A DNA stretch of 64,000 bases from Deltaproteobacteria bacterium (GCA_018433775.1 JAHDQN010000040.1:20587-84586); one strand, 5' to 3'. Counted from the first letter of the stretch, positions 2,996 to 58,416 are shown. A program made the numbers and translations. Notes: generated from the letters alone by a model not told the origin.

Positions 2996-3052
2996 GCCTA
3001 ACGTGCAGATCACCGGCGGCTGAAAGCCGTCCGGTGCATTTGCGGGTTAGCC
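2996..3052. repeat. attC site 4
   Basis: The element reads GCCTAAC gtgca gatcaccggcggctgaaagccgtccggtgcatt tgcgg GTTAGCC. Confidence 0.65.
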
Positions 3053-3079
3053 AGCCTACCCATATAATTTTATCTGGCA

Positions 3080-3880
3080 TTACAGCGGAAGACAATAAAT
3101 TAGATCTGTATAGCATTTTTCAACCACATTTTTTGGAAAAGGTAAATGTTCGTAATCACTTCCAATTATCCCTTTATTCAAATTCATTTGGTTGTCACAA
3201 AGGATAATTATGTATTTACCAAGGGCTTTAGCATACGATGTCTCACTAAGAATCCACGAGGTGTCTCCGGGTGTAAAGATACAGATAAAAATATCTTGTG
3301 AATGTATTTTTTGGGCCACTTTATCTGGTATATTCTTTGTTTCATAACCACTTCCTTCTTTAACGTCGAATCCGAGACGTCTGAGAAAGGTGTTGAGTTT
3401 GCCTGAAACATCATTTCCGTATTCATCAAACCTATGTGCTAAAAAAATAGACTTCTTTAACCCATACTTTGATACTTTGGCTGAAACATCTTCGCCGGGA
3501 TTACTGGCTTGGAAAAATGATTTTACATGATCATGTATTGAGCTAATAATATCTAGATCATCTGATCTTACACATACTTCAAGACCTGACTTGCGAATAT
3601 TAATTATAGTTGAAAACCCAAGAGATGCATTTTTGCCCCAATAGTAATGTACATATATTGGCAAAGCATTGGGATAAGTTTCAAGCAAACGCATGAACTC
3701 CTGAAAATTTTCAGCGTGAAGTCTTCTGAATTCACCAATATGCAGACTTAAAGAATGTGAGTCTGATTTTGGTTCTTGTGGTTTATATTTATTGATCTTC
3801 AAGTATTCATCAAATTGCCTAAAGGATGATAGTATATCTAAATTACTTGGGTATACAGAATACTCTCTATCTTCTTGCAT
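3080..3880 (-). CDS. Cassette protein with a C-terminal TIR-like domain and an N-terminal domain of unknown function
   Basis: The C-terminal roughly 130 aa show the TIR pattern: IFLAHRFDE...FLRRLGFDV...IFICIFTPG..SWILSETSYAKALGK. Confidence 0.55.
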   Translation of the reverse strand: MQEDREYSVYPSNLDILSSFRQFDEYLKINKYKPQEPKSDSHSLSLHIGEFRRLHAENFQEFMRLLETYPNALPIYVHYYWGKNASLGFSTIINIRKSGLEVCVRSDDLDIISSIHDHVKSFFQASNPGEDVSAKVSKYGLKKSIFLAHRFDEYGNDVSGKLNTFLRRLGFDVKEGSGYETKNIPDKVAQKIHSQDIFICIFTPGDTSWILSETSYAKALGKYIIILCDNQMNLNKGIIGSDYEHLPFPKNVVEKCYTDLIYCLPL

Positions 3881-3922
3881 AAATACTGCCCCCTATGGCT
3901 AACAACTTCCTCTACTGCATAA

Positions 3923-3960
3923 TTGCAGCAAAAGTTGCTATATAGCAACTTTTGCTGCAA
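3923..3960. repeat. 38-bp perfect palindrome at the junction of the cassette array and the chromosome
   Basis: The sequence ttgcagcaaaagttgcta|tagcaacttttgctgcaa has 18-nt arms. It follows an imperfect inverse-core-like GGCTAAC at about 3897-3903. Confidence 0.6.
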
Positions 3961-4311
3961 CATTATGAATTACGAATATACCATGCTCCTCTTTTCGGAA
4001 GACCTTTCTCCTGGGGGGAGAGCTCGTGAGGGCCGTGCAGGAATCAGGGCAGACTCCGTCAGTAGAAGGTGAACGTGAAGATAGAAAATGGTCTCCTCTC
4101 ATTCATTTCATGCATCGACAAGGTCCGGCCGCCATTCCTGGCGTCCGGGCAATAACCTGTGAATACGATATCATTTTTTCCGCGACAAATCCAGATGAAA
4201 GTGAAAATGCTCAAGCCGCACGGGACTGCACCGTTCATGGCCCTGCCGCTCTGTACGGGCGGTCGAGCGGGCTGAACAGACCCCGCCGGGGTTTCCGGAG
4301 GCGTTACAGCC

Positions 4312-9200: not shown

Positions 9201-9481
9201 GTCTGGCCGCCCAGGGTCGGGAGTATGGCGTCGGGACGCTCCAGCTCGATTATCCTGGCCACCACCTCGGGCGTTATGGGCTCGATGTAGGTCCTGTCAG
9301 CGAGCTCCGGATCGGTCATGATGGTGGCCGGGTTCGAGTTGATGAGCACGACCCGGCAGCCCTCTTCCTTCAGGGCCTTGCAGGCCTGGACGCCCGAGTA
9401 GTCGAACTCGCACGCCTGGGAGATGACAATGGGTCCTGACCCGATGATGAGTATATTCTTCAGATCATTTCGTCGCGGCAT
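6272..9481 (-). CDS. carB: Carbamoyl-phosphate synthase large subunit
   Basis: The 1069-aa product has duplicated ATP-grasp halves and an MGS-like C-terminus. Confidence 0.95.
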
Positions 9482-9758
9482 GGTTTCCTTTTTTCTTGTG
9501 CGGTGAATTATCGCAAGTCGCAGATCAATGTCTCGTGCGGCATATCACGGCTGCACGTCCACTGTCTTCTCCTTTGTGGCGGCGATCGTCGTGCACCGGA
9601 CTCGAGTATCCTCTCTTGACGCAAGGCCTTAAACCGGCGTGCGCGATCTTCTTCAGGCAGGCAATGCCGTGAACAGACTCAGCGCCCGGACCGGGTGCTT
9701 GAGGAGACCGGCCGGGCAGCAGCCGCCCGAACAGGCATGCCTGCAGAATCGGGCCCTG

Positions 9759-10751
9759 TTATGCGCTCAGCTTCGACCCCGCGGGTGCCGGCACGTCGAC
9801 TTCCCTGATCCTGATGCCTCTGGCTTTGAGGGCCTGCCGGCCGGCCAGCAGGTCCCTGCCGGCGATCTTGTCGAGCACATAGATCAGGTTGCCGCCGCGC
9901 TCGGCGTATATCTGCCCGTACGAGATCGGGATCTCAGGGGAGGGGTCGTCGAGAATCGAGCGGGTGATCGGTTCGAGCTTGCGCTCGCCGTTGGCAAGGA
10001 GCATGACGGTCTTTGCCTTGTACACGAGCTCGGCCCCCATCGAGACGGCATACCGGGGAGAGTCTTTCTCGGTGGCGAAATGGCCGTCGGCCACCGCGTT
10101 GGCGACCGTGTTGCCGTCGAGCTTCACGAGCAGGACATTGCTTCCCTTAAAGGGGATGCCCGACTCATGGAAGGCCACGTGGCCCCTGCCGCCCACGCCG
10201 ATGACCTGCAGGTCGATGCCTCCGGCCTTGCGGATCTTGCGGGCATAGCCGTCCAGGATCTCTTTCCTGATCCACCCCAAATATGCGGAGTCCGGGTTGC
10301 TCCGGATGGCAACCGACTTCCCCTTGTCGGTCCCCCTCTCCTCCCAGTCCTGCGGGTTTGCCTTGAGCTCGGCCACGAGCTTTTTCTGCTCGATCAGCGC
10401 GCCGTAGGGCACGTTGGTCTCGATGAACTTGCCCTTGAGAAGGCTGAAGAACTCCTGAATCATAAAAAATGCATAGCTCTCGGGGTGCATGACGCGGAGC
10501 TGGGCGTTCTCGCCCGGCAGGCCCACGTACTCGTCCAGGTTGAAGCTCCGGCAGCGTTTCGAGTCGAACTCGCCCTGGTTCGCCGCCTGTGCGAGATGCT
10601 TGTAGAGCCCTGTGGGCGAGTTGCCCGTCGCAAGCCCCAGCACGGCCTCCTGCTTCTGTTTCAGCACCTGCTGGATTTTATCCTTGGCAATGTCCGCGGC
10701 AACCTCGCTCATCGAGGCAAAATCATCAGTTACGAAAATCTCGATTCCCAT
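9759..10751 (-). CDS. Glucosamine-6-phosphate deaminase / 6-phosphogluconolactonase family protein (NagB-like)
   Basis: The GLATGNSP motif and a Rossmann-like sugar-phosphate isomerase fold are present. The product is longer than a canonical NagB. Confidence 0.55.
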   Translation of the reverse strand: MGIEIFVTDDFASMSEVAADIAKDKIQQVLKQKQEAVLGLATGNSPTGLYKHLAQAANQGEFDSKRCRSFNLDEYVGLPGENAQLRVMHPESYAFFMIQEFFSLLKGKFIETNVPYGALIEQKKLVAELKANPQDWEERGTDKGKSVAIRSNPDSAYLGWIRKEILDGYARKIRKAGGIDLQVIGVGGRGHVAFHESGIPFKGSNVLLVKLDGNTVANAVADGHFATEKDSPRYAVSMGAELVYKAKTVMLLANGERKLEPITRSILDDPSPEIPISYGQIYAERGGNLIYVLDKIAGRDLLAGRQALKARGIRIREVDVPAPAGSKLSA

Positions 10752-38429: not shown

Positions 38430-40079
38430 TCACTCGCCCGTTGTCCTGAACTTCTTCACGTCGCTTGAGAGTACCGAGGCATCCGCCCTGAGACTGTCAA
38501 GGGTGCAGGCAAGCTCTTCAACGGTGGTGGCGTTGTTCTGTGTGAATGAGTCTATCTGGCTGACGGCTATGGAGAGCTCCTTCATGTTCTGGCTCTGCTC
38601 CATGCTTGCCGTGGTAATCTCTTCCATCATCTTGAAAAAGAAATCGAAGCGCGACATGAGCTCTTCGAGGGACTCGGCCGTCTTTTTCATGAATTCGTCA
38701 CCGGTCTTGATACGGCCCACGGTTCCGTCGATGAGATTCCGGATCTCCCTGGCCGCATCGCCCGAGCGCTGGGCAAGGGCACGGACCTCACCTGCCACCA
38801 CCGCGAATCCTTTCCCGTGCTCGCCTGCCCGGGCGGCCTCCACCGATGCATTGAGGGCCAGGAGGTTTGTCTGGAAGGCCACTTCGTTGACCGTCACCAC
38901 GATATCCCCGATCTTCCGGGAATCCTGGGAAATTTCCCGGGTGGCATCCATCAGCCGGGAGAAGACCTCCCTGTTCTTGTCGATGAGCCCGGTGATGATC
39001 TGGGAGGTTTCCCTCCCCCCCTTCACCACCTGGGTGTTGTGCTGAATCGATCCGTTCATTTCTTCTATCGATGCGGATATCTCCTCAATGGACGCCGACT
39101 GTTCCTGAGTCGCCTGTGACAGGCCCTGTGAGCCCGAGCTCACCTGCTCGATGGAGCCATGGAGTTGTAAAGAGATGTGCCTCACATGCCGTATGATCTC
39201 TTCCAGGTCGTTCATGAACTCGTTGAACCAGTGGGCAAGCTGGCCCACCTCATCGATGCCCCTCACCTCCAGCCGTCTTGTGAGATCGCCCTTGCCTCCC
39301 GCCATGTCCTTGAGCATGCGGGACATGCCGCCAACGGAGGCGGTGATCCCCTTCATGAGAAGATATCCGTTGAGGAAGGTCATGATGACGGTCTGGAGGA
39401 CTATGAGAGGAAAGCTCATCTGGATAGTGGAAAGCGGCATGCCGGCGAATATGGAGAGATAGATGGTGCCGATCAGATCGCCGATTGGAGGGATTGCGAT
39501 GAGAAGAATGATGGCGAAGAGCTTCTGGTTGAGGCTGATTCTCAGATAACCCGTGCCATCTGCGAGGATTCCCTTCCTGCTGCACTCCCGGTAAAAGGGG
39601 GCGAGGCTGTTCTCGGCCACCAGGTAATAGAGCGCCATTCCTGACAATCCGGTCATACCCAGGATATTGCCCCCGAATATGAGCAAATCGAACGGCAGGT
39701 AATCTTTCATGTAAAGGGGCATCACCACGGACAGCCATGCAATCCCGGCCCACCTGATGAATATCAGGACAGCCTCTGCAAAGGGGAGGATCGAAGCACA
39801 GCGCAGGGCATACCTCGCCTCCCGCTCGTCAAGTCCTCCGTCCTCCATCACCCTGACGGCAGGACTCACCAGATGATATTTGACCGCCGCTCCGATAGCC
39901 ACCGAGATCACGGTCTGCAGGAATACCAGGGTGATGCCTTCGAGAAAATGTTCCCTGAACCCTTGAGATATGGGAAGAAAAAACATGATGACCGTCGGCA
40001 CCAGCACGAGATACGTGATTCCCTCCTGGAGCAGGAACGGGCGCAGGGAAAAGACCTTTGTGTACTCCTTCATGAGCAA
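38430..40079 (-). CDS. Methyl-accepting chemotaxis protein with a polytopic membrane-embedded N-terminal region
   Basis: HAMP and MCP signalling domains are present. The N-terminus has at least six hydrophobic helices. Confidence 0.8.
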   Translation of the reverse strand: MLMKEYTKVFSLRPFLLQEGITYLVLVPTVIMFFLPISQGFREHFLEGITLVFLQTVISVAIGAAVKYHLVSPAVRVMEDGGLDEREARYALRCASILPFAEAVLIFIRWAGIAWLSVVMPLYMKDYLPFDLLIFGGNILGMTGLSGMALYYLVAENSLAPFYRECSRKGILADGTGYLRISLNQKLFAIILLIAIPPIGDLIGTIYLSIFAGMPLSTIQMSFPLIVLQTVIMTFLNGYLLMKGITASVGGMSRMLKDMAGGKGDLTRRLEVRGIDEVGQLAHWFNEFMNDLEEIIRHVRHISLQLHGSIEQVSSGSQGLSQATQEQSASIEEISASIEEMNGSIQHNTQVVKGGRETSQIITGLIDKNREVFSRLMDATREISQDSRKIGDIVVTVNEVAFQTNLLALNASVEAARAGEHGKGFAVVAGEVRALAQRSGDAAREIRNLIDGTVGRIKTGDEFMKKTAESLEELMSRFDFFFKMMEEITTASMEQSQNMKELSIAVSQIDSFTQNNATTVEELACTLDSLRADASVLSSDVKKFRTTGE

Positions 40080-40766
40080 CCTTCCTTTCCCGATAAAAGG
40101 CTTTTATGTCATATTGTATGTTTATATTATTCATTCATTCTTCCTGGGTATATCGGCGACACAGTGCTGTAAATTTAATCGCATACCTGCCGGCATTGCA
40201 AAGGTTTACGACCGGTAACTTTTAGGGAGTAAGAAAAGAAGGAACCCTGCCCTGGAAGACAGGAAAAGAAACCGGATGTTCGGAAAAGCCGACTCCTTAA
40301 AAACCACCAAACCGAAAGATTCACAAGAATGAACACCATCCGCCCTCAACGGGAAATCAGTGCACGGGGAGGTTCGTGTATGTATGATTTCTTATAGAGA
40401 TATGAATTCTGTATCTCGCGATCTCAGGTTGAGATAGCCAGTTGATATATGCAATGTAGGCTAAGCCTTGTTATCCTCACACGATATATGAACTCTTCAA
40501 AAGACCTGTTTAATGGGAAAGGCTCTCTGCGGTGCCAGGAGAAATGATTGGGACTAATAGTGTAGTTGTAAAATCACCGACGATCCAAGTTTACCTATCC
40601 TCTGTTCGAGCTATACTGATCATTCACTTTTTTTAGGCAAGGGGCGTAATAATTATATTGATGATGGCTACCGATACTATCGGCAGATGACGCTTCGGCG
40701 TGTCACGATTCATTCCAGGCGTTAATTGCCTGGGTAAAGGCAACGTCCAGAGGAGGAGTAGCGATC

Positions 40767-42077
40767 ATGAGGCACCTTCGTATATCCATCATGGGTCTTG
40801 CAGTGTGCGTAGCGGTCATGTTCACGTGCGGATGCAGCGCGGTGCGGTATACCACCACCATGAAGCCTTCCTGCGACAAGGACCTGCAGTACGGCCCGGT
40901 CCGCCTCAACGTGTCGAGCTTCACCTACGAGATGCCTGGTGTTCAGCCCCAGCCGCCGGACATCGACCGGAAGGCGAAAGAGCTCTTCCCGAGCGTGTTC
41001 ACGGACGACCTCGCAGGACTGCCTGTCCACATCGACATCAAGAAAACGTACGACGACACGTCCATGGGCGTCACGAGGCTCCTCTCGCTTACCTTCACGC
41101 TTGGGGTGATCCTGATACCGGGCACCCAGGAGTACGGGTTCATTGTCCGTACGAGCGTGCTGGACTCCCTGGGCGAGCCCCTGGTCGAGAAAGAGGGGAA
41201 GTTCGGAATCGACACGGTGTCATGGGGCAGCTACTGGCCCTGGGGCCTCCTGCCGGTGATCGGGCCCTCCGACCTTCCGAGGGCATCCCTTTTCAGCGGG
41301 AGCAACTTCGCGTCCGGCACGATAGAGTCTCAGACCAAGATCAACGACCACGCCGCCGCGTGCATCGCCGAGATCGCGGCCCGGTCGCTCCAGTCGGCAG
41401 ATCAGGCCAGGCTCGAAGCAGCCTACCGTGAACGGCAGTCCCGCGTGCAGGAGGTCACCATCGACGGCCGGAAGTGCACAAGTTTCCTCACCATGAACCC
41501 GGTGTCCAGGCCGAAGGTTGGCAGCGTCTTCAAGGCGCTCGTGTACGATGGCGAACCGAAGCAGTGGACAAAACCGCTGCATACCGCGGTCGTGGCCCGA
41601 TACGACGAGTCCGGCCGCTGGCGGCCCGTGAAAACCTACCTGCGCCATGCCCGCACGCTCACCTCGGTGAGCGCCCTGATCGAGAACAATATCCCGGTCA
41701 AAGTGGCGGTGCGCACGCCCGAAGCGCCTCCCCTGGAGGACTTCATCGACACCCCGGACCTCTCGGGTGCCGACCGTGCCGAGGTCTTGCGCTGGAGCAA
41801 CTCCATGCTGCTCGATGCCAAGAACCGGTCCCTGGAGAGGCTGCTGCAAGAGGAGAGCAGGGAAACGCTGCTCGCGCTCGCGACCCGTATCGAGCGCTCC
41901 ATCCTGGACCTGAACGAGCAGGCGGAGCGAGCCAAGGACAAGGCCCAGGCCATGGTGGAAAAGGGAGAGGGCGACCCTGCCCCCGAGAGAGAGCTGTCGG
42001 TCCTGTGCCGCCAGCGCATCGAGGTGCTCAAGCCCGTGCTCGCAGCCGTCAAGGTTGCTGCAGCGGGAAAGCAGTAA
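40767..42077 (+). CDS. Lipoprotein of unknown function, paralog A of a tandem pair
   Basis: It has a signal peptide and lipobox (FTCGCS). The C-terminus is conserved with the next gene (PPLEDFID.PDLSG.DRA..LRWSN). Confidence 0.6.
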   Translation: MRHLRISIMGLAVCVAVMFTCGCSAVRYTTTMKPSCDKDLQYGPVRLNVSSFTYEMPGVQPQPPDIDRKAKELFPSVFTDDLAGLPVHIDIKKTYDDTSMGVTRLLSLTFTLGVILIPGTQEYGFIVRTSVLDSLGEPLVEKEGKFGIDTVSWGSYWPWGLLPVIGPSDLPRASLFSGSNFASGTIESQTKINDHAAACIAEIAARSLQSADQARLEAAYRERQSRVQEVTIDGRKCTSFLTMNPVSRPKVGSVFKALVYDGEPKQWTKPLHTAVVARYDESGRWRPVKTYLRHARTLTSVSALIENNIPVKVAVRTPEAPPLEDFIDTPDLSGADRAEVLRWSNSMLLDAKNRSLERLLQEESRETLLALATRIERSILDLNEQAERAKDKAQAMVEKGEGDPAPERELSVLCRQRIEVLKPVLAAVKVAAAGKQ

Positions 42078-56689: not shown

Positions 56690-57706
56690 CTATTCCACCC
56701 AGTCGACATCGGACAGCTGGGTAGGATAACTGTTCAAGAAGCCAAGGCAGAGATCGTTTGTTTCGTCAATGAACGCCAATGCCCCCTCTTCGTAATCCGG
56801 CATATCCGCGGAAAGGATCGGCACTACCTCTTCAGGGGTAGCACTCTCGATGTTGTCCAGGGTGGTGACAATATAATAATCTTGCGGGACACCTCCATCT
56901 GCAATAATAGCCCTGAATGCCATATCGCTGTCCACTTCGCCTCCTGCCAGAATTTCCCACTGGGCATCCACGTTCATCCCGGCATCTGTAGACTGGGTGA
57001 TGGAGAACCATCCCTCATCCGGACTCCCCCTCCACTTGAATGCGCAGTGAAAATCATCCTCGCCTTCCGGCTCCGAGACTCCGGCGAACCACAAGTCCAT
57101 GATGCCGGTGCCGATGTCCTTGCATCCGTAAAAGATTCCCGCTTCCCCGCCGTCCAGCAGCACGTCCCGGACAACCACGACCTCTTTGCTGGAATTTGTC
57201 ACAAAAGCCATTTCCGTGATGTACGTTTCACCCTCCACCTCGATTTCTATGGTGACCATCCGATCCACGGAGACTTCATTTTCGAAGAAAGGCACTGTCA
57301 CCGTCCGTGCGGTTGAATCAACGGTCACGTTTAACGTGTATTCGCCGTAAGCCCTCTCATGCTCCCCATCGGAATTCCACAGATCCGACACCTCGTTGAT
57401 CATCTCGATGTATTCATCGATCTTTTCCACGGCGTAGAAAATTCCTTCCCATCCGCTGATGTCGGGGTCGTCGAACAGCTTTTGAAGGACCGTATACTGC
57501 ACAGTCGGGTTCCAGCCTCCCCATGTTGAGAGCGGTTCGGCGGCGCTCTCACCCAGAAACGGCGTGCACGCCATCACGTCCTCTCCGTAAGTGGAAAGCT
57601 GGGATACAACCGGATCATCGTCACTGCTGCTGTTGCAGCCCGAGACTGCCACTATGCCCGCAAAAAGGCAGAGCGCACAAACGCCCAATAGCTTCCTCGT
57701 GATCAT
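56690..57706 (-). CDS. Acidic lipoprotein of unknown function
   Basis: It has a signal peptide and lipobox (VSGCNS). Confidence 0.5.
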   Translation of the reverse strand: MITRKLLGVCALCLFAGIVAVSGCNSSSDDDPVVSQLSTYGEDVMACTPFLGESAAEPLSTWGGWNPTVQYTVLQKLFDDPDISGWEGIFYAVEKIDEYIEMINEVSDLWNSDGEHERAYGEYTLNVTVDSTARTVTVPFFENEVSVDRMVTIEIEVEGETYITEMAFVTNSSKEVVVVRDVLLDGGEAGIFYGCKDIGTGIMDLWFAGVSEPEGEDDFHCAFKWRGSPDEGWFSITQSTDAGMNVDAQWEILAGGEVDSDMAFRAIIADGGVPQDYYIVTTLDNIESATPEEVVPILSADMPDYEEGALAFIDETNDLCLGFLNSYPTQLSDVDWVE

Positions 57707-57978
57707 TGTTTACCTCCTGTTGTTGGATTGTATCTTTCCTTCTTCGGCAATTGGGTTGAGAAACTTTCGTTATTTTACGCAATGAAATATTAATTTTAGA
57801 TTTTGTATTATTCCGGGCCTGAGGTTCACCGGCTGATGCGGGCGCTATGCCCGGCACGACAGTATGTCCGGTATGACGAAAAGGAACGAATGAGCGCATG
57901 ACAGTGGATACGAAATCATGCTTGTGATACAAGACAACCGGATTTATCAACTGACAGACAGGGGTTCTTGAGGAAGGT

Positions 57979-58416
57979 ATGAAGAAACTCATCCTGATCC
58001 TGCTCGCCGCAGCCTATGCCGCGAGCCCCTATGACCTGCTGCCGGATTTTCTCATCGGCTGGGGCTGGCTCGACGACCTGTTCGTCGGATATCTCCTGTA
58101 CCGGTATGTGCTCTTCCCGGTCGCGGGCCGATTCGCCAGGACAGAGAGCTCCGGCGGCCGGAGGCGGGAATATGCGGGCCGGGATTCAGCTGCGGGCGGT
58201 CGGCACGATTCCGGAAGCGCGCCCGGCCCCAAAGACCCCTACTCCGTGCTCGGCCTGGACCGTGGGGCGTCAAGGGACGAGATTCAGAAGGCCTACCGGG
58301 AGCTGGCGAACAAGTATCACCCGGACAAGGTCCAGCACCTGGGCGAGGAGTTCAGGATGCTGGCCGAAGAGCGTTTCAAGGAAATCCGCCAGGCATACGT
58401 CTCGCTGACGGAATGA
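57979..58416 (+). CDS. Membrane-associated DUF1232 (YkvA-like) domain fused to a C-terminal DnaJ J-domain
   Basis: The N-terminus has [15 protein letters not shown]. The J-domain shows DPYSVLG...[14 protein letters not shown]. Confidence 0.7.

Follow-up and report, generated by a model that had tools for sequence, protein, structure and literature searches.

The gene at positions 3080-3880 on the minus strand of the window, a stretch of 64,000 nucleotides from Deltaproteobacteria bacterium (GCA_018433775.1 JAHDQN010000040.1:20587-84586), was found to be a true single-gene integron cassette in the first position of its array, and it encodes a 266-aa two-domain protein in which a putative sensor domain precedes a TIR-type domain predicted to act as an N-glycosidase. 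Proteins of this kind, namely a TIR-type effector joined to a sensor and acting alone on a mobile platform, are already known, and so are defence genes in integron cassettes. What is new is the protein family, with an N-terminal domain without relatives, a TIR domain intermediate between canonical TIR domains and nucleoside deoxyribosyltransferases (NDT), and at least three subfamilies. The family is not represented in PADLOC, Pfam or PHROGs.

The ORF extends from ATG to stop (stop codon at 3080-3082), with a purine-rich, RBS-like GGGGG located 9 bases 5' of the ATG, and the start MQEDREYSVYPS was kept across the family in the alignment of full-length homologues. No sigma-70-type promoter was detected on the coding strand upstream of the ORF by the promoter scan. 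A total of 122 homologues were obtained from 5.8 billion proteins, nearly all of them 262-269 aa in length and aligned from end to end. Conservation was determined on an alignment of 56 full-length homologues with 40-74% identity, in which F146, A148, F151, D152, G176, Y179, K187, D196, G205, W209, E213, A217, G237, G240, D242 and E244 were invariant, and H149, R150, L166, L169, G170 and F171 were at least 90% conserved. The TIR pattern described in the original prediction was thereby largely recovered: its IFxxH..D box is present as I145-F-L-A-H149-R-F-D152 and its L..LG..V box as L166-R-R-L-G170-F-D-V173. The third box, proposed as S.W...E...A, corresponds to S208-W209-I-L-S-E213-T-S-Y-A217, in which the W...E...A part is exact, but S and W are adjacent rather than separated by one residue. 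Since the residues listed for the three boxes are invariant or at least 90% conserved in the 56 homologues, their occurrence is not due to chance. At the family level no match for the 266-aa protein was found in PADLOC (only a weak one to ThsB, E 0.009), PHROGs or NCBIfam. The AlphaFold2 model built with the family alignment (mean pLDDT 87) displayed two globular parts connected by a low-confidence linker at residues 126-140.

The C-terminal domain comprises aa 141-266 (3083-3460, minus strand) and was modelled as a flavodoxin-like, five-stranded parallel beta/alpha fold, which superposes on solved TIR domains. The secondary structure elements follow in the order betaA (144-148), alphaA (153-168), betaB (172-175), a 10-residue loop, alphaB (186-193), betaC (197-202), alphaC (208-219), betaD (223-229), betaE (244-248) and alphaE (253-263). 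The loop between betaB and alphaB, aa 176-185 (GSGYETKNIP; 3326-3355, minus strand), is the equivalent of the BB loop, and besides the invariant G176 and Y179, its residues G178, E180, I184 and P185 were at least 90% conserved in the 56 homologues. When the model was searched against the PDB by Foldseek, the TIR domains of C. elegans TIR-1 and human SARM1 ranked at the top (E 2.9e-5 to 1e-4). The best Pfam match of the protein, TIR_2 (PF13676), scored 15.5 bits (E 0.025) and fell short of the gathering score of 28. The same family was matched by 34 of the 56 members, all below the threshold in this per-sequence search (best member 26.8 bits, best E 7.9e-6). The HMM consensus of the C-terminal domain matched it at 29.9 bits (E 9e-7), marginally over the gathering score, with profile positions 1-110 of 122 covered. 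The CAP12/Pycsar-TIR family was matched by 9 of the 56 members and by the consensus at 17.1 bits (CAP12-PCTIR_TIR), and a Thoeris type III TIR protein was retrieved from NCBIfam with E 1.8e-4. Sequence searches of the PDB, by a single sequence and by two profile HMMER searches, gave nothing significant, the best matches being a SIS-domain protein (E 0.096) and an NDT (E 0.7); of the comparisons with the PDB, the structural one alone was informative. Taken together, the prediction that the C-terminal part, about 125 aa, is TIR-like was borne out by TIR_2 as the best and most recurrent Pfam match and by the SARM1 and TIR-1 domains as the top structural matches.

The putative active site was assigned by invariance and by hhalign comparison with the TIR domain of SARM1. 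In the alignment of residues 145-228, W209 corresponded to W638, E213 to the catalytic E642, and G221-K222 to GK. Codons W209-E213 (3242-3256, minus strand), located in helix alphaC, form the W-x3-E catalytic motif. When relatives of 23-28% identity were added, E213 was still invariant and W209 at least 90% conserved, and the invariance of E213 extended to three subfamilies, down to 23% identity. A catalytic Glu had been expected within the BB loop; the Glu is indeed present and invariant, but it is located on helix alphaC after betaC, whereas the BB loop occupies 176-185.

The N-terminal half is an alpha/beta domain of aa 1-125 (3506-3880, minus strand) with a putative sensor or regulatory function and without a known family, and it is followed by the linker, aa 126-140 (3461-3505, minus strand), which starts with a conserved ASNP, is otherwise variable and has pLDDT below 50 at 131-135. 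Modelled alone, the domain reached pLDDT 94.5 and pTM 0.88, with a b-a-b-b-a-b-b-b-a sandwich. In agreement with its description as uncharacterised, it had no match in Pfam, and the profile search of 1.84 billion representative proteins returned 46 clusters, all fragments or proteins of about 256-290 aa with the same layout, the sole exception being a spurious eukaryotic FF-domain protein. One distant relative, P0145, carries the same N-terminal domain (E 3e-13) together with another TIR domain, of canonical TIR_2 type (35.8 bits, which exceeds the gathering score), and only the N-terminal domains of P0145 and the main family could be aligned by hhalign. This combination showed that the N-terminal domain is a module that pairs with TIR effectors. 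A sister family was also found in metagenome contigs, with proteins of about 260 aa, a very divergent N-terminal half and the same C-terminal domain, in which TWLxQE keeps the W-x3-E motif. The sister and main families were aligned by hhalign over residues 11-264 (E 5e-32), with low confidence in the N-terminal half. The mean pairwise identity within the main family was 35% for the N-terminal domain versus 61.5% for the C-terminal domain, and the columns at least 90% conserved accounted for 9% versus 37%. The N-terminal domain thus evolves at roughly twice the rate of the TIR half, and such a fast-changing recognition module on a conserved enzyme would be the pattern expected of an immune sensor-effector.

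The position of the C-terminal domain between TIR and NDT required that another enzyme class be weighed. The domain could function as an NDT/DrHyd/MilB-like enzyme, with E213 as the nucleophile acting on a nucleoside or nucleotide (e.g. dNMP, CMP/hmCMP or ATP) instead of NAD+; such an enzyme could still serve in defence by depletion or destruction of nucleotides, or have a role in salvage or detoxification. This is consistent with the Foldseek matches next in rank, the CMP N-glycosidases MilB and BcmB as well as DNPH1 (E 3e-4 to 3e-3), and with Nuc_deoxyrib_tr (PF05014), which was weakly matched by 7 of the 56 members. In addition, the L. leichmannii NDT (1f8x) was the only PDB match of the broad family profile, a non-significant one (E about 0.7-1), and in that alignment (E 0.85) E213 fell on the nucleophile E98, with the motif E-x2-YA-x3-GKY-hydrophobic common to both. 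Nevertheless, the profiles did not place the domain in a flavodoxin-like family other than TIR and devoid of the catalytic residue: the Glu is conserved, and the consensus scored 13.9 bits (E 0.063) on Nuc_deoxyrib_tr, 16 bits lower than on TIR_2. The Nuc_deoxyrib_tr gathering score of 28.8 bits was never reached (best member 17.2). TIR domains characteristically have a Trp four positions ahead of the catalytic Glu, where NDT has Gly; here the near-invariant Trp corresponds to W638 of SARM1. The column of the NDT residue D92, six before the Glu, is a variable Ser/Thr, and the near-invariant D206 lies one position out of register in the same non-significant alignment. The relatives point in the same direction, since in the sister family TIR_2 was the only Pfam match (3 of 12 members, against 0 of 12 for NDT) and the domain swapped into P0145 is a canonical TIR_2 domain, not an NDT. 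For these reasons an NDT-type enzyme is considered unlikely.

The C-terminal domain therefore sits between canonical TIRs and NDTs in sequence and fold. In our reading, it would belong within the TIR/NDT N-glycosidase superfamily and be closer to TIR in sequence, because of the 16-bit advantage of TIR_2, the Trp instead of Gly before the Glu, and the sugar-binding Asp of NDT being out of register. The predicted chemistry, Glu-assisted cleavage of an N-glycosidic bond, would follow whether the domain is of TIR or NDT type, but the substrate does not follow from it. We infer that NAD+ is the likeliest substrate.

The array in which the gene lies was defined by its attC sites. Downstream of each of four minus-strand ORFs, an imperfect hairpin rich in GC spans 57-60 nt, with xxxxAAC and GTTxxxx at its ends. 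When six attC sites were aligned, compensatory changes were found in 10 of the 20 predicted pairs. The covariance model built from these six sites detected four attC sites in the array, each of them on the minus strand, and no match was obtained in the rest of the window (60 kb). The attC of the TIR cassette (2996-3052, 57 nt; 69 bits, E 3e-14) lies directly 3' of the stop codon. The others belong to the second cassette (attC 2071-2127, 69.4 bits), with a DEDDh exonuclease-BRCT gene at 2131-2985; the third (attC 1207-1263, 70.3 bits), with a gene at 1327-2028 that matches DUF4145 and PD-T7-4; and the fourth (attC 448-507, 54.9 bits), whose gene at 462-1208 encodes a 248-aa hydrophobic product in which several TM-like stretches were noted by eye. 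Rfam and tRNA scans of the window returned nothing. The imperfect hairpin of the TIR-cassette attC has a folding energy of -28.5 kcal/mol for the top strand and -35.3 kcal/mol for the bottom strand, and its plus strand has two unpaired bases in the 3' arm. Unpaired bases of this kind mark the recombinogenic bottom strand of attC sites; the plus strand is thus the bottom strand, and the ORFs are in the usual cassette orientation.

The boundaries of the TIR cassette were determined from the complementarity of its ends. Its 5' boundary GTTAGCC (3903 to 3897) matches the reverse complement of its own R'' box GGCTAAC exactly, and the same relation was observed in all four cassettes, the other pairs being GCCTAAC/GTTAGGC, GCCCAAC/GTTGGGC and ATCCAAC/GTTGGAT. 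An R'' box complementary to the 5' 7-mer of its own cassette is predicted by circular excision and reinsertion. Together, the attC site and the R''/5'-boundary match defined a complete gene cassette of 901 bp with one ORF at 3002-3902 on the minus strand, from the TT of the upstream GTT core to the G of the downstream GTTAGGC. The proposal of a cassette-borne lone gene was thereby upheld.

The TIR cassette is the first of the array, with no attC upstream of it, and it adjoins an attI-like insertion site (3900-3990, minus strand), which contains a 38-bp perfect palindrome at 3923-3960, then GCAGTAGAGGAAGTTGTT. The insertion site is located downstream of pyrG, at a distance of 400 nt. The host is a Desulfomonilia MAG: the closest relatives retrieved for its PyrG share 94-96% identity with it, and those that have a name (94%) belong to Desulfomonilia. 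Three close relatives, L030, L105 and L106 (PyrG 94-95% identical), do not have the TIR gene at the pyrG locus, but share with the window pyrG, a non-coding spacer of about 370 nt (81-88% identity), the palindrome and the GAAGTTGTT core. The homology ends at the GTT core, after which a different first cassette is found in each genome. The four first cassettes carry the TIR-like gene, a 104-aa Cys-rich ORF, a trio of histidine kinase, response regulator and REC-CAP12-type TIR protein, and a trypsin-like protease. An attC is located downstream in all three relatives, directly after the ORF of the first cassette in L030 and L106, and 91 nt past the third gene in L105. This turnover of the first cassette after a conserved block is the behaviour of an attI site. 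No integrase was found by tblastn with IntI1 in the window or in 29 loci (L001-L029), nor in the gene tables of L030, L105 and L106 within 6-10 kb of the site. The absence of an adjacent intI made the array an integrase-less cluster with a conserved attI-like site.

The first ~4 kb of the window have a GC content of 34-42%, while the remainder has about 60-65%. A chimeric assembly was considered, since a perfect palindrome forms the join between the 38%-GC array and the 62%-GC genome, and the short-read contig L001 is broken at this point. It was rejected because the same junction of pyrG, spacer and palindrome is present in three related genomes; homologues in other MAGs are likewise low-GC inserts with high-GC DNA on both sides, which also argues against a chimeric join. 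Given the attI-like behaviour of the site, the transition from low to high GC is genuine, and the TIR cassette represents a recent first-position acquisition specific to this strain.

The distribution of the family was consistent with a mobile cassette gene. The full-length relatives (>120) were all located in environmental chromosomes, from MAGs of Nitrospirae, Desulfobacterota, Acidobacteria, Chlorobi, Bacteroidetes, Verrucomicrobia, Planctomycetes and Firmicutes, and the hosts are free-living bacteria of sediment, groundwater and peat. The collections of phages, plasmids and viral contigs contained no relatives, so that a phage-borne or plasmid-borne origin was not supported. The homologous genes often have 32-40% GC within genomes of 60-65% GC. 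An attC on the strand of the gene flanks the homologues at at least 6 of about 20 genome loci and at least 12 of 74 metagenome loci, and these counts are lower bounds, as the covariance model was narrowly trained. No conserved neighbour gene was found in more than 15 independent genomic contexts from many phyla. In the window, the neighbours in the second and third cassettes match defence models in PADLOC (PDC-S48, E 2e-28, and PD-T7-4, E 1e-8), and the arrays that hold homologues elsewhere include HEPN/PD-Lambda-3_B, an LmuA-like protease, a NucC-like nuclease, ubiquitin-like (Bub-type) and toxin-antitoxin cassettes. Genes unrelated to defence are also numerous in cassette arrays, among them those for FMN reductase, a DNA alkylation repair enzyme and PGA hydrolase, and the defence context is therefore only suggestive.

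Based on these results, the promoter-proximal single-gene cassette could encode a self-contained sensor-effector, an abortive-infection NADase similar to SpbK, and we would give this model about an even chance. It builds on the ORF and its two-domain family, the TIR/NDT fold, the invariant Glu that corresponds to the catalytic residue in SARM1 and in NDT, and the cassette in first position without a conserved partner. In the model, the C-terminal domain would be a TIR-type N-glycosidase with its active site formed around W209 and E213 of alphaC and the BB loop. The N-terminal domain would act as the sensing part, keeping the enzyme off until an infection-derived trigger binds, most likely a phage protein. 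Activation would be triggered by oligomerisation: binding of the trigger would gather the TIR domains through the conserved BB loop and complete a composite active site, after which E213 would cleave NAD+ and the NAD+ pool would be depleted. The growth of the infected cell would then stop before the phage cycle is completed, which would be abortive infection, the presumed anti-phage role of the protein. A defence role is plausible and consistent with the genomic context.

Several other readings were compared with the model. The protein might work as a signal generator like ThsB, in which the TIR domain makes a cADPR-type or other ADPR-derived messenger for an effector encoded elsewhere in the genome. 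With a single ORF in the cassette and no conserved neighbour at the many loci compared, a generator moving alone as a 0.9-kb cassette would seldom meet its effector; the lone-gene, highly mobile distribution therefore weakens this reading, and it is regarded as very unlikely. A non-immune function would take the form of a toxin or addiction module that stabilises the array, with the N-terminal domain as a cis-antitoxin, or of a TIR effector directed against other cells, or of a housekeeping NAD or nucleotide enzyme. Toxin-antitoxin modules are abundant in the arrays, where DUF4160/DUF2442 and Phd/ParE pairs adjoin homologues, and TIR proteins of integron cassettes elsewhere have been interpreted as host-interaction effectors (PMC11089894). 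However, the Pfam scan of the 266-aa protein, which is not specific for signal peptides, showed no secretion-associated domain or signal peptide, the hosts are free-living, and the combination of a fast N-terminal domain with a conserved enzyme fits an immune sensor-effector. A housekeeping role is also at odds with the patchy, strain-specific distribution, including the three close relatives without the gene at this locus. Overall, a non-immune function was rated as rather improbable. A non-catalytic TIR scaffold or adaptor, acting through protein-protein interaction only, is hardly to be expected, given the strictly invariant Glu and near-invariant Trp across the three subfamilies, and the conservation, in the main (A1) family, of the BB loop and of the His-Arg that follows betaA. 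Of the readings considered, the self-contained NADase model has the best support.

The protein closest in layout is SpbK (YddK) from ICEBs1 of B. subtilis, which has 267 aa, with the N-terminal domain at 1-94, a linker, and the TIR domain at 116-267 with the catalytic E192 (PMC11984713). SpbK is encoded alone on ICEBs1 and is an NADase that depletes NAD+ when its N-terminal domain binds the phage portal protein (PMC11984713). The likeness, drawn from the published domain map, concerns the layout only, i.e. an N-terminal domain, a linker and a TIR domain in about 266 aa encoded by a lone gene on a mobile element. [quoted passage not shown] SARM1 forms octamers and is under the control of ARM and SAM domains, but here an unrelated 125-aa domain precedes the TIR domain, which in the model is more compact (about 125 aa) than those of SARM1 and TIR-1 and lacks the alphaD helix. 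Different from Thoeris, in which thsB adjoins a thsA-type effector, the gene is one ORF with unrelated neighbours at every locus examined. Compared with the TIR effectors of CBASS and Pycsar (Cap12 TIR-SAVED or TIR-STING, and PycTIR), no adjacent cyclase gene is present, and the N-terminal domain is not SAVED, STING or cNMP-binding. The protein differs from NDT, MilB/BcmB and DNPH1 by the much lower profile score, the Trp in place of Gly and the sugar-binding Asp out of register described above; moreover, NDTs are stand-alone metabolic enzymes, and the present protein is a two-domain cassette protein.

Small anti-phage genes are documented to be stored in integron cassettes and to become active when in the first position (PMC13434031), as reported for mobile integrons (Kieffer et al. 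2025) and the superintegron of V. cholerae (Darracq et al. 2025), both summarised in PMC13434031, and TIR proteins have previously been noted among integron cassettes (PMC11089894). The TIR cassette resembles these anti-phage cassettes in being a small single-gene cassette in the first position of an array with defence-like and toxin-antitoxin cassettes. It differs from them in its host range, Desulfomonilia and other environmental phyla, in having no adjacent integrase, and in not being included in the PADLOC models. A wider reading is offered more tentatively, with somewhat less than even confidence: the gene may represent an undescribed superfamily of single-gene anti-phage cassettes of about 260 aa, with at least three subfamilies across many phyla that would share the TIR/NDT-intermediate N-glycosidase and a fast-diversifying, family-specific sensor. 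Here the gene would occupy the first, expressed position of an attI hotspot that lies downstream of pyrG and lacks an integrase, where cassettes are exchanged among Desulfomonilia. Within this reading, the exchange of first cassettes among genomes with PyrG 94-95% identical would indicate active cassette capture, with an integrase acting in trans.

If the SpbK-like model is correct, the cassette would provide a small, mobile immune module that depletes NAD by means of one gene and senses its trigger with a novel type of domain, and would be a candidate for phage-resistance screens and for identification of the recognition target of the N-terminal domain. As the C-terminal domain lies between TIR and NDT, its substrate would help to show how the N-glycosidase families diverged. 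The pyrG locus offers a clean natural case of first-cassette turnover at an attI-like site without a neighbouring integrase, and bears on how integrase-less attC clusters stay active. A separate observation at this locus was that an IS element splits the palindrome in L030.

The attI-like cassette insertion hotspot (3900-4303, minus-strand orientation) downstream of pyrG was compared with the loci L030, L105 and L106, in which related Desulfomonilia genomes carry the same pyrG-side junction. A conserved non-coding spacer of ~370 nt, a perfect palindrome of 38 bp (3923-3960) and GAAGTTGTT were common to the four genomes, and the homology among them ended at the GTT core. The first cassette at the hotspot differed in each of the four. 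No integrase gene was detected by tblastn, with an IntI1 query, in the window or in loci L001-L029, and the gene tables of L030, L105 and L106 listed no integrase within 6-10 kb of the site. These results suggested that cassette capture at the pyrG hotspot was driven in trans.

The first hotspot cassette of L105, a close relative of the host, was a three-gene unit, in which histidine kinase and response regulator genes were accompanied by one (9257-10111) for a REC-like protein of 284 aa that carries a TIR domain of the CAP12/Pycsar type. The pyrG hotspot has thus captured two different TIR-type effectors, of which this is the second. In L030 (12063-13753, GCA_050949605.1), the centre of the palindrome was interrupted by an IS element whose transposase belongs to DDE_Tnp_1, and CTATATAG was found on both sides of the element; these copies may represent a target duplication. 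Further transposases (Y1_Tnp and DDE_Tnp_1) were located later in the L030 array.

The TIR cassette of the window was also recovered in L001 (Logan contig SRR13787005_27844, 941 nt), which was independently assembled from short reads. One end of this contig lay inside the palindrome and the other inside the attC. The fragmentation was attributed to the attC core GCACCGGACGGCTTT(C/T)AGCCGCCGGTGATC, which occurs twice, in the attC of the TIR cassette (2996-3052) and in that of the third cassette (1207-1263).

The GC content of the TIR-type gene in the window was 0.34 versus 0.62, and the homologue genes in loci L017 and L018 had values of 0.32-0.33 with flanks of 0.61-0.64, so that the family stayed low in GC even inside high-GC genomes. 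The attC was not detected in some of the loci with a low-GC gene and high-GC flanks. The low GC of the family suggested either very recent transfer or a composition under constraint. Against a genome GC of otherwise ~0.60-0.65, the window also showed local dips at ~40000-41000 (0.48) and ~57000-58000 (0.52), and no tRNA or Rfam match was obtained across its entire length.

In L006 (1653-3503 and 4897-5509), a homologue was flanked on one side by an operon for ubiquitin-like conjugation (Multi_ubiq, DUF6791-ThiF E1-like and BubE) and on the other by a Phd/ParE toxin-antitoxin pair, surroundings which are defence-island-like.

The remaining cassette genes of the window were all on the minus strand. 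The second (2131-2985) encoded a 284-aa fusion of a DEDDh (RNase T-type) exonuclease with BRCT, which matched PDC-S48 (E 1.9e-28), a candidate defence model of PADLOC, as well as PHROG 192, DNA polymerase exonuclease subunit (E 1e-42). The 233-aa product of the third (1327-2028) has a zinc-ribbon-like motif (CxxC...CxxC) at its N-terminus in addition to a DUF4145 domain, and it matched PADLOC PD-T7-4 (E 1.4e-8) and PHROG 1305 (E 1e-33); a DUF4145 cassette was likewise present in the array of locus L021. The fourth (462-1208), whose ORF overlapped its own attC (448-507), encoded a hydrophobic 248-aa protein with multiple TM-like stretches as judged by eye and no family match. The fifth ORF (1-441), with its start near 441, was truncated by the left end of the window, and the array therefore extends past it.
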